Positions 4,003-61,900 of a DNA stretch of 64,000 nucleotides are shown here, one piece after another. Where the stretch lies: the NCBI RefSeq assembly GCF_039555335.1, contig NC_092647.1, forward strand, positions 18,756,946 through 18,820,945, given 5' to 3'. How positions within the stretch are numbered: position 1 is the stretch's first letter; each line of letters starts with the position of its first letter. The DNA comes from Amphiura filiformis. Its lineage: Eukaryota. The notes beneath the pieces were generated by a model. The model did not search any database. It saw only the letters and a list, made by a program, of their open reading frames with translations, and was not told the origin of the DNA. A program made the translations under genes and the position numbers.

Positions 4003-4112
4003 TGTGAATCGTTTGAGTCTGGCCCATGGTGAAGTTGAGAAGGCTGTAAGACAGAGGTACATGCGAGGTGCAGCAGCAGAACTAGAGAGCAGACTACATG
4101 CATTGTTAGCTG
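4003..4112 (+). CDS. Exon 3
   Basis: Acceptor ttaatttag|TGTG, donor GCTG|gtgagt at 4113. Translates SVNRLSLAHGEVEKAVRQRYMRGAAAELESRLHALLA. Phase-consistent. Confidence 0.65.
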
Positions 4113-4172
4113 GTGAGTATTGAGGTTGCTTTTGTCTAGTGTTTTTTTACTTTGGTTTGCTCATGTTGTTAG

Positions 4173-4335
4173 GGCTGTGACACCGTGACTTCTCTTTAGT
4201 CCGAAGGGTCGCTAGTCTGAAGGTCCTCTAATCCGAAGTCGCTAGTCCGAAAACCAAATTAAGGTTGCTAATCTGAAGGTTCTCTAGTCCGAATATAGAA
4301 TAAGGGTTAGTGTTTGGGTTTAAAGTTAGGGTTTC

Positions 4336-4367
<32 letters not shown>

Positions 4368-4601
4368 CGAGCCTTATTCTATATTCGGACTAGAGAACCT
4401 TATTCATTATTTGGACTAGCAAACCCTCGGACTAGAGAACCTGATATTCGGACTAGAGAACCTGATATTCGGACTAGCGAACCTTGTTCAGAATTCGGAC
4501 TAGCGAATGGTAAATTATGTGTTCGGACTAGCGAACCTTCGGACTAAGGAGCCTTTGGACTAGGGAACCTTCTGACTAGAGAGTTGTCACCTGTGACACA
4601 G
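4173..4601. mobile_element. Hairpin element with an interstitial telomere-like (TTAGGG)n core and GACTAG(C/A)GAACC subrepeats
   Basis: TIR ggctgtgacaccgtgac / gtcacctgtgacacagc. Arms hold repeated tagtccgaa / ttcggacta units. Centre 4300-4370 is gggttagtgtttgggtttaaagttagggtttcgggttagggttagggtttagggttagggttag. Confidence 0.55.
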
Positions 4602-4669
4602 CATTTACATATTGACTGGGAAGGGAAGGGAACAGATGGCTGGCTGTAAGACAGAGATTCATGCAAGGT

Positions 4670-4790
4670 GCAGTAGCAGAGCCAGGGTTGCCAAACCTGC
4701 ATATTGGTAGCCCAATTGGGCGACTTTCGAAAATTTTCCCTGCGGCTTTTGACAATTTCCTGTCCCATAGAAACCACAGAGGTACATGCA
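4670..4790. repeat. Partial copy of the CAGGGTTGCCAAA MITE family (full copy at 25446-25692)
   Basis: ccagggttgccaaacc...tagcccaattgggcgactttcgaaaattttccc...cttttgacaatttcctgtcccatagaaacca matches the inner part of 25446-25692. Confidence 0.4.
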
Positions 4791-4864
4791 ACTTGTTGCT
4801 GAGAACATATTATGTACCGATTTTCCTAACTGCTAAACTGCTAACACTGTTTTAATTTATATAG

Positions 4865-5139
4865 GATATTTCTACTCCCAAGCTGACCCAAACAAGGACC
4901 ACACCTGGCGTGGCAAACAAGTGCGCCCTCTATCACACTTAGCCTACCATCTCGCAAGTGCCAATGCCTATCAAGATTTGGCTTCAGTTCTATGCAGCCT
5001 GCATTACATCAAGGTCAAATGTCAACTAGGCCTAGCTGCTCAGCTATTGGAGGATTATCAGGCTGTAGGAGGGACTACCAGCGCAAACCGCAGTGTGCAA
5101 AGAGAGAGGGAGAAGTTCTTAGCTAGGCCTAATATACAA
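4865..5139 (+). CDS. Exon 4 (linker with the HLAYHL...LCSLHYIKVKCQLGLAAQLLEDY motif typical of NACHT-WD/TEP1-like proteins)
   Basis: Acceptor tttatatag|GATA, donor CAAG|gtaagt at 5140. A 91-codon open frame: YFYSQADPNKDHTWRGKQVRPLSHLAYHLASANAYQDLASVLCSLHYIKVKCQLGLAAQLLEDYQAVGGTTSANRSVQREREKFLARPNIQ. Confidence 0.75.
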
Positions 5140-5615: not shown

Positions 5616-5859
5616 CTTGCTTGTATTGCACCTGAATCTATGTAATAGAAACCTTTATGTAGATAAATATAATACCTAATCACTTGTAGTAAGAAGGTTT
5701 TCTATATTCTCTGTTAAAGCCAGGCCCTTGGAACTTGGAAGTAAAACAGTGTATTAATATGAGACTTATTTTGGAAGGTTTGACATCACTGCCCTTAGAT
5801 TAATGTATTAAGTCTCGGGTTCATCGCACTATGTGCTATATTTTTAGTCTGTGATAAAG

Positions 5860-6175
5860 CTAAAGCATCCACTTTTTATGACATTTTTCAGTAGATATCC
5901 ACGAAAAGAGCTTATTCCCAAAATTTCAGTTGATTCCGATTTTGCGTTTGCGAGTTATGCATTATTATGTGTATTACACTGCTCCATAGGCCACTGTTGT
6001 AATTTCGTTCTGGTATACCAGAAAACAAATTTGACAATATTTTTGCTAAACGAATGATTCTCCAAGAAATTTTTGGTACATAAACATTATGTCACCAGAG
6101 GTTTCCAGTGGTGTAACAATCTCAACTTTTTTTGAGAAAAGTGGGGGGATGAGACTGTGGATCACGAAATGCCCT
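5860..6175. repeat. Dispersed repeat family. Related copies at 20045-20345 and 32440-32590.
   Basis: Shared blocks: atccac.aaa..gattattcccaaaatttcagttgattccgattttgc.tttgcgagttatgcat...ccataggccactgt.gtaatttt and gtcaccagaggtttccagtggt...gatgag.ctgtggatc.c.aaatgccc. Confidence 0.5.
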
Positions 6176-34160: not shown

Positions 34161-34696
34161 CGTAATTTTGGACAAATAAGGCCTCCCACTAATTAATTTT
34201 TACTAGAAGTTGAATATTGGTCTTAAAATGTTCTTTTAATTGATGTTGTGCCCCTAAGGGTGGCGCCCGGGGCACGTTGCCCCGCCCCGCCCCGCCCCCT
34301 AGTTATGCCACTGCACTCATAAATATCTATTTATAAATGGTAAATTATATATTAAAGTGATACTTGTTGTCATGGAGACTGCCTTTCTACAGAAGCTTAA
34401 CATTAAAGACTAGCATGTGCAAACCAAGGTTATGTTATCACTCATAGACCTCTATTTATAAATGGTAAATTATATATTAAAGTGGTACTTGTTATCATGG
34501 AGACTGCCTTTCAAGAAGCTTCTAGACCCTTTTCATACAACATGCATACAAACCATGGGTGTAGGTTTGTTGTAAAAATGTGAGGGGGGTGAATTCAAGA
34601 AAAAGTTTACGTCTATGCACAAGCCTCATGGCATGGGGAGAGGTTGAGAGGAAGAAGCCCCCAGAAGCTTCTGACATGAACCAAATGTGAGGGGTA

Positions 34697-34870
34697 CACC
34701 CCGTTAGTCCGAAACCCTGTCAGTCCGAATCACCGCTAGTCCGAATTTTAAGCTTACCTAACGCTAACCCTAACCCTAAACCTAACCCTAAATCTAACCC
34801 TAACCTGAAAAATTCGGACTAGCGGTGGTTTCGGAATGACAGTGTTTCGGACTGACGGGTAGACCCCGAA
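34697..34870. mobile_element. Second hairpin element with a telomere-like (CTAACC)n core and TAGTCCGAA subrepeats (intron 22)
   Basis: ccccgttagtccgaaaccctgtcagtccgaatcaccgctagtccgaatttt...ctaaccctaaccctaaacctaaccctaaatctaaccctaacctg...aaattcggactagcggtggtttcggaatgacagtgtttcggactgacgggtagacccc. Confidence 0.55.
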
Positions 34871-35727
34871 TCTGAGAATTAGAAATGGTGCCATAATTTG
34901 ATAGGAATCATCACAATTTAACACTCAAAAAGTAAGATGTGATGTGGTATATATATAAAAAAGCACTATTAATTTTGAGTGTTTTACTAAAAATATAGAG
35001 ATGTTTTGCTCCACAACGCTGTTTTCCCCAATGAAATCGGACATTCCTAAGCAAAGATATTGAGTTCGTAAGTTATGGTATTTTAAAATTGGAAATTGAG
35101 ATATTGGCCTTTAAAAATATTATTGGCAATGTTGAGAGTAGGAATAACCTTGATAAATGTTTCAAAAAATACAAGATGCCAGTTAAATTCCGGTCTGAAA
35201 CTATATCAGACAATATTTTATTTTAACATTATTAACATCACAAATTTGCAACAAACCCAATTTGTGAAAAAAATTGCACCAGGGCAGATTTTTTGCTATT
35301 TCTTCATTTTCGATTCTGCCCCAAAGTGTCTCCTTTCGATATACCACATCACAAATGTCAGCAAATTCAATATTAACCCCATGAGAACTACTTGCCGATT
35401 GGCCAAAAAGAAGTTTTCATTATCAATTGGACCAATCGGCAATATTGTTAGAATAATTTCACCACACAAAATAATTGGGGTGAATTGTTTGCAAAGCTCC
35501 ATTCTGATTAATGATTACAGTGAAGATATCATGTAATTGACCAATCAGAGGCAATGTTAGATCGGCAGGTAGTGCTCAGGGGGTTAACAATGAAATTAAA
35601 TGAGAATCTCTTCATCTGCAGGAGTTTGACTAATTGGTTGAAAATGACCTAATTAATGATGTGATAAAATGGGGGTGGGGATGATAGGGCCATGATACAA
35701 ATAGTACTGTTTATGTTTTTTTTTCAG

Positions 35728-41739: not shown

Positions 41740-42010
41740 AGTCATCGGCCTTGTAGGAAGTTGGCGGGCGGGCCTTGTACCCGAGTCCAGCTTGTCCGAG
41801 TCCGAGCCGAGCCGAGCCGAGTCCATTTGTATCCGAGTCCGAGCCAAGTCCGAGTCCTTTTGTGCCCGAGTCCAAGTTCGGGGGTGCCGAGTCCGAGCCA
41901 AGTCCGAGTCCAACAAAAATAAGACCCGAGTCCGGACTCGAGTCCGGCTCGAGTCCGGACTCGGTCAGAGTCCATGCCCGTGGTGGTGGTGGTGGTGGTG
42001 GTGGTGGAGG
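41740..42010. repeat. GC-rich CpG minisatellite (CCGAGTCCGAGC-type units) followed by (GGT)9 and a G-run
   Basis: gtacccgagtccagcttgtccgagtccgagccgagccgagccgagtcc...gactcgagtccggctcgagtccggactcgg...tggtggtggtggtggtggtggtggtggagggggggg. Both strands carry spurious proline/glycine-rich ORFs. Confidence 0.8.
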
Positions 42011-58950: not shown

Positions 58951-61900
58951 TTTGAAATTTGATAGTTTTATTTGGTACATTGAGTCAAGTACAAGACGTC
59001 AACGTGAACTTCACAGTCGTGCCAGTGTAGTGGTAATTGTAGTAAGTTTCGTGCTAATTGTAGTAAGTTTTGTTAATTTTGTTAATTCGCCATATAATAC
59101 ATATAATATATATTTAATGGCAAATAATTAAAATACAGTCTTCGAAGTAAACTTTATAAATGTAGTGATATGTTCCAGTCTTCGAAGTAAACTGTATAAA
59201 TGTAGTGATCAATATATACTTAAAAGTAAAAGTATATAATTTATGTAGCTGGGATGAAAATCTGATGATCAATTTCGCATTAAAGATATGAATTTTTTCC
59301 CCAAAACACAAAAAAGCACAAAGAATAGAGGTATTTTTGATTCAAAGTTAAATTGCAAAACACTGGTGATAAAGTATGTCGATCTCATGTGTTGCATAGT
59401 TGTGTCATTATGAATATCAATTAGCTAATTTGCATAATTTTGCCCGAAATCCCGTTAATCCATTCTGTAGCCTACACGCGATCACCGAACTGCTAACATG
59501 GTTTTTGCTGTTATTTGCACATTTATGAATATTAATTACCATAATTTGCATATCTGAAGGTGAATTGTATTTGTCAACTAAACGTAAAAGAAAACCTCTT
59601 TCCAACCTGGACAATGGGGTATATATCAAAATCTATGCACCAGTTGTTACAGTTAAGGAAACGGGAAAACATTCAATTGTTAGGTCCTAGGATGTAAAAG
59701 CAATTTTCTTTCATAATATTGTATAGACGAATCCAATTTCACGCATTCCTACTCCTCAATGGCAATCAATTGGATAAATATTATCAGGTGGTAATAAATT
59801 TGCATTGGACAATAGATTACTATATAATGGTTTAGTACTGCATATATCGGTTTAATCTTCAGTAAGCGGGTTTATGGCTGGAAAGGTCACGGTGAATATG
59901 CCGTGGACGACACTGCACTATGTCATGCCTAAAGTTGTTTTATTAGAAGCTTAATGATGGTTGGCCAAACATTAAATGGAGTGCAAAGGTCCCGTAATTA
60001 GACGAATATGTTTGGTGCTTTATTTGCGCGTTTTAGCGTACCGGAAAACAATGTCATTTATTTAAAACACGAGAGTTAACATGCTTAAGAAGACAAAAAA
60101 CACGTCAATACCTTAGGTTCTGGATGAATAAGAAGAAAAATGGCCTAAATACATCTCACGCTAGCTTTATTCTAACAATATGAAGAGCATACAAAGATTT
60201 TGTAGCACCTGTTACAAGAAAGACGATTTATGTCAATAGTAAATCTCAAAGGAATCGAGTTATTTCAGTCAATCTCAAAAATAATATTATCTAATTACTT
60301 CTGCAATTCATAAGCCCGATCTATTAGGTTAGAATCTATAATAAATTACTGAGTTTGGCGAATTGGTAAGAATAAAAACTTATACAGTTTACATTATTTT
60401 GGAAAACGGATTTTTGCATTACGTAGAGTAAGGTTGTCCGCACCCCAATAAAACGTCTTTGTTTTTGTTTACGTTAATGGTGTCAAATAATGTTAATTAG
60501 TTTAAAAAGCACTGAAAGCTCCCTGCGCGCTAAAACTTTTCACGCCAATACAATACACTAATGTTGACATAGCCAGAAATAGGCCTTCTGTCCTGTCATC
60601 AGTGTGAAGATAATATGCCTGTAGTCTCAACTATTACATGACACAGTAGAAACTCAATAAACATCTATTGTTTATTCAACTAATTTGTCAACATTAGCAT
60701 GTATTCTGTGTTCAGCAGTGTCTGTTTTTATGGAGAACCTATAGTCAACAGTAGAGTGTTTGTTTATTGAATTAATTTGTAAGTGAAGCTTTTGAGTTGA
60801 AGGAGAGATTAATCAGGGTTGCCAATTGGTAACCCAAATGGGTGACTTTTGAACAATTTCCCTGAGACTTCCCATAGGAACAGATCATGGTTAAGAAAAA
60901 AATTGGGTGACTTTTCAGCAATGCAGGTGCAAGTCTGGTAAGGATAAGTAGTGGATGTCTTGAAAGCCTACATTTATTCAACTAAGGGACTGGCTCGGAG
61001 AGGGTTTGTCTGATACAGGAGCAGCTGACAGGTAATTTGTGTCTGTGCAAAATATTTAGGCCCATGCGGAACGTAAGTGTCCTACAAAATTTATTTTGAT
61101 TGTTCTGAGACTGCACTTCAAATTGCGCTGCATCAGGTGAAATTGCACCACAACTTGGGGTGCACCCCAAGGTAACAAAATAAACTCAAATATTGAAATT
61201 GCTTCTGACCTTCTCAATTGTAATTCTAAATGACAACATCCTCTCACCTCACTAATCACATTAAATAGAACATTTAAAAACAAATTATATAAAATATCAG
61301 TACCGCGAAAGACGGTGACCGCGAAAGACGGGTGACTGCTAGTATAAATAATATTGCACTTTACAAATATTGAAATAGAAATTTAATATCTTTCACCTGT
61401 TCATTTTTTGTTAATTTTCAGCTCAGGGAATCTAATCTAAGAAAAATAAGATAATTATTGTTCAAACACCGGAACAATTAAGATCTGCCATTCGTGTTAG
61501 TTCGACACCAAGCATTCATAGAATTTTACTTTATTTTAGTTAAAGTTGAATGTCCCGGGGTAAGATGGTTATCTAAACTCGGCAGCGCTAAAAGGAGTGC
61601 GCAGAAGGTGGGCCCACGATTAGACCAATGCGCTTGATGCTTTGTTTGCGTTTTAACACATCCGTTTATAAGGGATCAACCCCTGGAGCCCAACCGCTCA
61701 AGTTTGACGACAAGTTAAATAATCTAGATCTAGTTCGTGTCGTCAAACTGCACGTTACTTTTAGTATGTTCAGGGTGAATTACCGTGAAGGGTGTGTACA
61801 AACTGTATATCGACGAACGAAGAATAAAGAATAATGGATGAATTTAAATCGAAGGACAAACGTGGAACTGACCTTTTTTAAATGATTATACAAATAATCA

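Follow-up and report, generated by a model that had tools for sequence, protein, structure and literature searches.

The window, by which we mean the whole 64-kb stretch of DNA that was analysed, is eukaryotic in character (GC 35.7%, CpG observed/expected 0.65) and contains a multi-exon gene on the plus strand with many WD40 exons. Outside the WD40 part of the gene, the sole Pfam match in the window is an APAF-1 helical domain (APAF1_C), and the N-terminus of the protein lies outside the window. Searches with the predicted product returned generic WD40 matches and one metagenome relative, P0093, the product of contig L121, which is 70% identical at the protein level and 75% at the DNA level. 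Scans of the whole window against Rfam (at gathering thresholds) and for tRNA genes gave no matches. At 33837-34157, a 116-nt unit is repeated 2.7 times with 92% identity. This unit spans the end of a WD40-coding exon and the start of the next intron (…LKLWSKDAFKQ|gttagt), and the block therefore represents a recent tandem duplication of an exon-intron piece.

Comparison with L121 identifies 4003-4112 and the exon beginning at 4865 as coding, with the exon junction GCTG|GATAT encoding LLAG|YF. The intron between them (4113-4864, plus strand) is 752 nt long and has GT...AG boundaries. About 75% of this intron consists of a palindromic element (element A), a fragment of a different miniature transposon (MITE C) and scraps derived from exon 3. 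L121, the single related genomic contig compared for this intron, reads straight through LLAG|YF (640-700), so that exons 3 and 4 are fused and the intron is absent there.

Element A occupies 4184-4591 (408 bp) and has a perfect 8-bp direct repeat, TGTGACAC, on both flanks. The left copy of this target-site duplication lies at 4176-4183 and the right copy, identical at 8/8 positions, at 4592-4599; an alternative 9-bp reading, CTGTGACAC, is also possible. The left terminus of A (CGTGACTTCTCTTTA, 4184-4198, plus strand) puts exactly 15 nt between the duplication and the first GTCCGAA, a spacing that recurs in the metagenome copies described below. The left arm (4197-4305, plus strand) contains six subrepeats of the form TA(G/A)TC(C/T)GAA, which start at 4197, 4213, 4229, 4243, 4269 and 4285 and mostly follow a 16-nt period. 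The core (4303-4371, plus strand) is a degenerate, one-directional (TTAGGG)n run of about 10 units in the position of a hairpin loop; Tandem Repeats Finder reports an array at 4303-4367 within it, and matches to telomeric 12-mers fall there too. In the right arm (4372-4576, minus strand), about 10 inverted subrepeats are present (TTCGGACTA and variants), and the arm has been lengthened by tandem duplications of 21 and 26 nt. A perfect 30-nt inner inverted repeat pairs 4276-4305 with 4372-4401. The right 15-nt terminus (TAGAGAGTTGTCACC, 4577-4591, minus strand) ends in ...GTCACC, as in one of the metagenome subfamilies (g2).

Element B (34692-34868, plus strand) is shorter, 177 bp, and is composed of a terminus, three subrepeats (starting at 34705, 34721 and 34737), a (CCTAAC)n core at 34757-34805, three inverted subrepeats (34813, 34830 and 34846) and a second terminus. 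It is flanked by AATGTGAG on the left (34684-34691) and AATCTGAG on the right (34869-34876), which match at 7/8 positions. The distance from the outermost GTCCGAA to the duplication is 15 nt in A and B, except at the right end of B, where it is 16 nt. The arms of A and B have little in common beyond the motif and their overall architecture is the same; they are copies from different subfamilies. Neither element has coding capacity.

The motif TAGTCCGAA occurs 12 times in the 64-kb window (0.19 expected by chance), always within A or B. Telomeric 12-mers with at most one mismatch occur nine times (0.18 expected), and eight of the nine lie within A or B. Fold predictions for the single-stranded DNA give one long hairpin for each element and place the telomere repeats in its loop, at -89.7 kcal/mol (z = -11.5) for A and -49.0 kcal/mol (z = -12.5) for B. 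A first-pass annotation of the locus had described a palindromic element with subrepeat arms and a degenerate (TTAGGG)n centre, and had pointed to a sister element in a later intron. The description of A agrees with the anatomy given here, an element of ~410 bp whose two arms both contain subrepeats of the TAGTCCGAA type, and the sister element is real: B has the same architecture, shares a 20-mer with A and is matched by profiles built from foreign copies. The coordinates of both elements needed small corrections, to 4184-4591 for A and 34692-34868 for B.

Two further observations concern the arm motif. It differs from the telomeric sequence TAACCCTAA at three of nine positions, a likeness that could be coincidence or a hint of one DNA-binding domain reading both. 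Elsewhere in the window, at 41780-41975, GAGTCCGAG / CAAGTCCGAG repeats are followed by a palindromic GACTCGAGTCCGGACTCGG and then by (GTG)9; this block has an AGTCCGA core in common with the MITE subrepeat, and has neither a telomere run nor an evident duplication.

Relatives of A and B were sought in JGI metagenome contigs with the pattern AGTCCGAA, a gap of 5-35 nt and CTAACCCTAACCC, which requires the telomere core. More than 120 contigs carry this arm-plus-telomere pattern; the same pattern had no match in a scan of viral contigs. In about 20 of the matches listed, GC-rich contigs with degenerate telomere-like repeats, the pattern arises from these repeats by chance. The majority of the other listed contigs (GC 0.38-0.50) share the anatomy of A and B, in the order duplication, 15-nt terminus, two or three 16-nt GTCCGAA units, C-strand telomere run, inverted units, terminus and duplication. 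In at least 63 contigs, at unrelated loci, arms are present on both sides of the core. When the 15-nt rule was applied blindly to the 63 two-armed copies among the matches listed, 15 had perfect 8/8 duplications and 20 had duplications with at most one mismatch, compared with none of 186 shifted control pairs even at two mismatches or fewer. The sequences flanking the copies are unrelated to one another; neither an empty site nor an insertion polymorphism was encountered. Flanking duplications combined with flanks that differ from copy to copy identify the group as a cut-and-paste DNA transposon family.

We then compared the window with nhmmer profiles from two foreign subfamilies, g1 (units CGATAGTCCGAAGG) and g2 (units CACTAGTCCGAAGG). 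Over the whole 64 kb, the sole matches were A, on the minus strand (E 6e-15 and 3e-23), and B, on the plus strand (E 2e-12 and 5e-12), which ties both to that family. A and B are very probably non-autonomous cut-and-paste foldback/MITE transposons. The earlier idea of a mobile hairpin with a telomere-repeat core is borne out by the duplications and by dozens of copies at unrelated loci. A search of the full-text literature found no description of a telomere-cored MITE or foldback element; the family may already be catalogued in a repeat database such as Repbase or Dfam.

A and B are intronic passengers in a gene for a protein with an APAF-1 helical domain and WD40 repeats, and have no demonstrable relation to the function of that gene. 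The first-pass annotation had linked the telomere repeats to a possible telomerase-associated role of the host gene; this link is not supported: the part of the gene in the window shows only the APAF-1 helical domain and WD40, and relatives of the elements lie at dozens of unrelated loci in other organisms. In an annotation of the window, A and B should be entered as intronic transposon insertions, and their telomere repeats are uninformative about the host gene.

Each arm of the elements comprises a 15-nt terminus and then an array of ~16-nt subrepeats with TAGTCCGAA(GG). The two subrepeat arrays are mutually inverted, and the whole arm therefore acts as a long composite terminal inverted repeat. 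The subrepeats are putative binding sites for a transposase. A staggered cut at the target generates the 8-bp duplication seen in the flanks. A duplication of 8 bp is compatible with hAT, P, Merlin, Mutator and a few other superfamilies. On balance, we favour a Mutator-like (MULE) transposase as the most likely mobilising enzyme, which would make the family Muta1/Tm1/Foldback-like. Mutator/Foldback elements have duplications of 8-10 bp and variable subrepeat numbers. The duplications found here match at 8/8 positions in A, at 7/8 in B and at 8/8 in 15 of the 63 foreign copies. The number of subrepeats per arm varies: A has 6 on one side and ~10 on the other, B has three on each, and foreign copies have 2-3.

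Well-characterised systems offer close parallels. MULE families of Aedes aegypti have 8-9 bp duplications and terminal repeats of >100 bp with 9-15 bp subterminal tandem repeats (PMC5225508). Muta1 combines a terminal motif with 12-bp repeats spaced 3-4 bp, has hundreds of derivative MITEs with variable repeat number, and has been linked to its transposase experimentally (PMC5225508). Like Muta1 and the Aedes MULEs, the A/B family has 8-9 bp duplications with no evident target preference, a terminal motif with subterminal tandem repeats of ~15-16 bp period, and variable-number non-autonomous derivatives. It differs from them in its repeat motif, which is unrelated in sequence, and in the telomere array, which is not described between their arms; its transposase link consists of one contig and one weak half-end, in contrast to the experimental link in Muta1. 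In Tm1, a Mutator/Foldback family of root-knot nematodes with a Mutator-type transposase, the terminal motifs are asymmetric, the two ends have unequal numbers of 13-15 bp tandem units, some members are MITE-like, and the duplications measure 8-10 bp, mostly 9 bp (PMC3169594). The A/B family shares with Tm1 the composite terminal repeats of tandem units, the short asymmetric terminal motifs outside the inverted part and the MITE-like members, whereas in Tm1 the duplications are mostly 9 bp and one group has a histone-hairpin motif at its centre instead of telomere repeats.

Plant foldback transposons and the Foldback (FB) elements of Drosophila also have arms made almost wholly of tandem subrepeats, and can fold as a whole into a hairpin. 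With a length of kilobases, 9-bp duplications and no telomeric core, FB elements differ from A and B. Mutator/Foldback-like MITEs as such are known; the distinguishing feature here is the inherited telomere-repeat core.

The same kind of MITE could instead belong to the hAT superfamily, with a hAT transposase binding the subterminal TAGTCCGAA motifs in the way that Ac transposase binds AAACGG repeats, and we regard this as a possible but clearly less probable assignment. The duplication is exactly 8 bp, the canonical hAT length, in the 15 perfect cases among the matches listed, and reiterated short subterminal motifs are typical of hAT; A and B also resemble hAT-type MITEs in their small size and intronic location. 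However, the termini begin GGT/GGG and do not have the hAT-typical YARNG (those found read GGTTCTG, GGTGTCT, GGTTACT, GGTGACG, CGTGACT and GGGTACA). The terminal inverted repeats of hAT MITEs are short (10-25 bp), whereas here the inverted repeat spans the whole arm, and such long inverted arrays of tandem units are the pattern described for MULE and Foldback elements. Further, 21 duplications, judged by eye, are without an obvious nTnnnnAn target pattern, and the only transposase found beside a family end is a MULE.

This transposase is encoded on contig L126, which is the same sequence as L127 and L063 and has the left arm and no right arm. Downstream of a g2-type end with its core, a small exon conserved among homologues follows after 650 bp and an intact ORF of 706 aa after 2.2 kb. 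This ORF contains a MULE domain (PF10551, E 8.9e-9), together with a SWIM-like motif that was identified by eye. The 7.9 kb from the left end to the end of the contig contain no right arm. In L133, the arrangement is mirrored: a half-end (a weak match, E 5e-4) lies on the downstream side of a homologous ORF, 3.8 kb away, and consists of a G-strand telomere-like run followed by TTTCAGACTG-TTCGGACACACC. If the spacing in L126 is the same as in L133, the right end would be located just beyond the end of the L126 contig. The available flanks in ten other contigs with MULE homologues contain no family arms, and among the contigs examined no complete autonomous element, with both ends around a transposase, was recovered. 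With the L126 ORF as candidate transposase, the family would constitute a well-defined animal set of Mutator/Foldback-like MITEs.

Several other repeats in these contigs were considered. The genes for MULE homologues in L132 and L122 are surrounded by inverted copies, 47 nt and perfect in L132 (120-166 and 6151-6197), 79 nt and 78% identical in L122 (291-369 and 7221-7299). We rejected these as transposon ends; with a CCAAT box and TATA, and with TATAAATAG on one side, they resemble promoter modules. A 225-bp repeat common to L126, L067 and L090 was likewise rejected as the interior of a longer element, and is probably independent, because L076 and L080 contain it at a distance from any arm. 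L126 contains a different small hairpin (5771-5881), 450 bp downstream of the MULE ORF, with 34-nt arms (TTACACTTAACAATGCGTTG...TTAGTCC) that are 82% complementary and a degenerate, telomere-like loop of 43 nt; this hairpin may belong to the element interior or be distantly related to the family.

Downstream of A, the intron contains two copies of exon 3 sequence separated by the MITE C fragment. The first (4642-4685, plus strand) is a copy of 4042-4085 and lies outside the transposon. Over 39 nt (4642-4680 versus 4042-4080) the identity is 89.7%, with an E value of ~1e-9 when the whole window is searched; over 44 nt, the identity is 86%. Four of the six substitutions would change an amino acid, and the fragment therefore looks unconstrained. 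It begins 42 nt beyond the duplication of A and directly adjoins MITE C. The second (4776-4789, plus strand; ACAGAGGTACATGC) is an exact 14-nt copy of 4051-4064. The first-pass annotation was right that an exon-3-like segment exists and aligns significantly, but its coordinates (4627-4666 for 4045-4084) were off by 16 nt and 2 nt, and it placed the segment too close to A, ~20 nt past the terminal inverted repeat. It missed the exact 14-nt copy and the 94-nt piece of MITE C.

This piece (4683-4776, plus strand) is a truncated 5' part of MITE C with the terminal inverted repeat CAGGGTTGCCAAA. It is 85% identical (E 6e-26) to 25599-25692 on the minus strand, within a full copy that has both terminal repeats (~25449-25692, minus strand), and a further fragment is found at 60825-60870. 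Within MITE C, 78 nt are duplicated in tandem, and the element has an approximate duplication of 8 bp (TATCACAT / TATCACCA). MITE C looks hAT-like, and is unrelated to the A/B family.

The first-pass annotation had ascribed the copying of exon 3 to the insertion of A or its repair. That the fragments were made by insertion or excision of A itself is improbable, although they are close to it, 42 nt from its duplication and in the same intron. The duplication of A is a clean 8/8 repeat with ordinary unique sequence on both sides, and the exon-like fragments lie outside it, directly adjoining a different truncated MITE (4683-4776), one on each side; these positions argue that the scraps do not derive from the insertion of A. 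Fragment 1 is also ~10-14% diverged whereas the duplication of A is still perfect, which over such short stretches is a weak hint of age. Ordinary cut-and-paste integration produces a target-site duplication only and does not copy 40 nt of neighbouring DNA. The patchwork of exon piece, truncated MITE C and exon piece is separate from A, and may have been caused by error-prone double-strand-break repair, with template switching and filler DNA from nearby templates. An origin of intron 3 by tandem duplication (the Rogers model) was set aside, as the exon-like pieces are not collinear with the splice sites. The scraps in the intron should not be annotated as exons.

The telomere-repeat core is shared between copies in its details. 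An identical irregular 20-mer, CGCTAACCCTAACCCTAAAC, lies at the core edge of both A (4350-4369, minus strand) and B, and its 16-nt kernel, GCTAACCCTAACCCTA, is present in 25 of 136 fetched loci, including a few unrelated GC-rich contigs. Aligned g1 copies at different loci have the same degenerate core, CTAAAACTAAAACTGGCCCTAACCCTAACCCTGACCCTAACCGATACAGG, and in all 19 aligned copies the core points the same way with respect to the asymmetric termini. Since irregularities and orientation are common to copies at different loci, the core is inherited element sequence. It is copied to each new site along with the element, not added there by telomerase, and forms the hairpin loop when one strand folds back.

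The first-pass reading implied that other copies keep the core, and the three found without requiring it (A, B and a copy at 774-900 in L052) all do. The metagenome search was itself conditioned on the core and hence is no proof that the core is universal, the core-independent sample being these three copies. Arm-only profiles over ~470 kb of fetched loci found no complete core-less copy, and only a lone arm fragment of 28 nt (L073).

Short interstitial telomeric sequences are known to arise when telomerase inserts telomeric repeats at breaks, and the core resembles such sequences: it is internal, short and degenerate, and its TTAGGG units run in one direction. We ruled out a simple telomerase-inserted sequence of this kind, since the core is inside a multicopy element with shared irregularities; the run is transposon cargo, between inverted arms and within an 8-bp duplication. 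A variant in which the palindrome tip breaks in each copy, telomerase heals the break and the ends rejoin, so that the core marks fragility, would account for the location of the repeats exactly at the hairpin tip. It is very unlikely, given identical degenerate cores with the same irregularities at different loci and a fixed core orientation relative to the asymmetric ends. Healing by telomerase at a palindrome tip is possible as a one-off ancestral origin of the core. Telomere-associated retroelements (Penelope-like Athena/Coprina, TRAS/SART), which depend on reverse transcriptase and have telomere repeats at their 3' end or as their target, were rejected on the basis of the inverted arms, the 8-bp duplication, the lack of coding capacity and the central, not terminal, position of the repeats. 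A non-mobile origin, as a chance microsatellite in a local inverted duplication or a relic of telomere-to-telomere fusion, would explain no more than the occurrence of telomere hexamers between inverted repeats, and is negligible in view of dozens of homologous copies with duplications at unrelated loci, repeats that run in one direction where a fusion would give a head-to-head array, and elements of only 177-408 bp inside introns.

For the inherited core, we tentatively speculate that the telomere-hexamer array is not a passive spacer but a functional module, the inner part of the terminal repeat of an autonomous MULE. The order in L126 is end, C-strand array and transposase gene, and L133 has the mirror arrangement. 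Retention of the array in deeply diverged subfamilies would then reflect a function. The array may attract the transposase or a Myb-type host protein that binds telomere repeats, it may serve as a promoter element, or, as an unpaired loop, it may allow the palindrome to be replicated. If so, interstitial telomeric sequences would spread through invertebrate genomes driven by the transposon.

Short interstitial telomeric repeats are usually ascribed to chromosome fusions or to telomerase acting at breaks. A multicopy transposon with a telomere run as cargo offers a third, simple route, and could seed many intragenic sites, at which telomere proteins might bind and the DNA might be fragile.

Telomere-like repeats in other settings were encountered among the metagenome matches. 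Ten GC-rich contigs (L008, L014, L019, L021, L031, L046, L060, L084, L107 and L109; GC 0.60-0.67) have ORFs broken by blocks of degenerate telomere-like hexamers (CCCTAA, CCCTAG, CCCGAA), which look like introns made of telomere-like repeats, in a protist. In L056 (match near 4864-4904) and L075 (1174-1229), a (CCCTAA)5-6 block has on its two flanks a direct duplication of 18-28 nt of the surrounding sequence (ggaggctctatcgactcag... and ttgaattacaggatgcgatggattcagc), which is unusually long for an insertion of telomere repeats.
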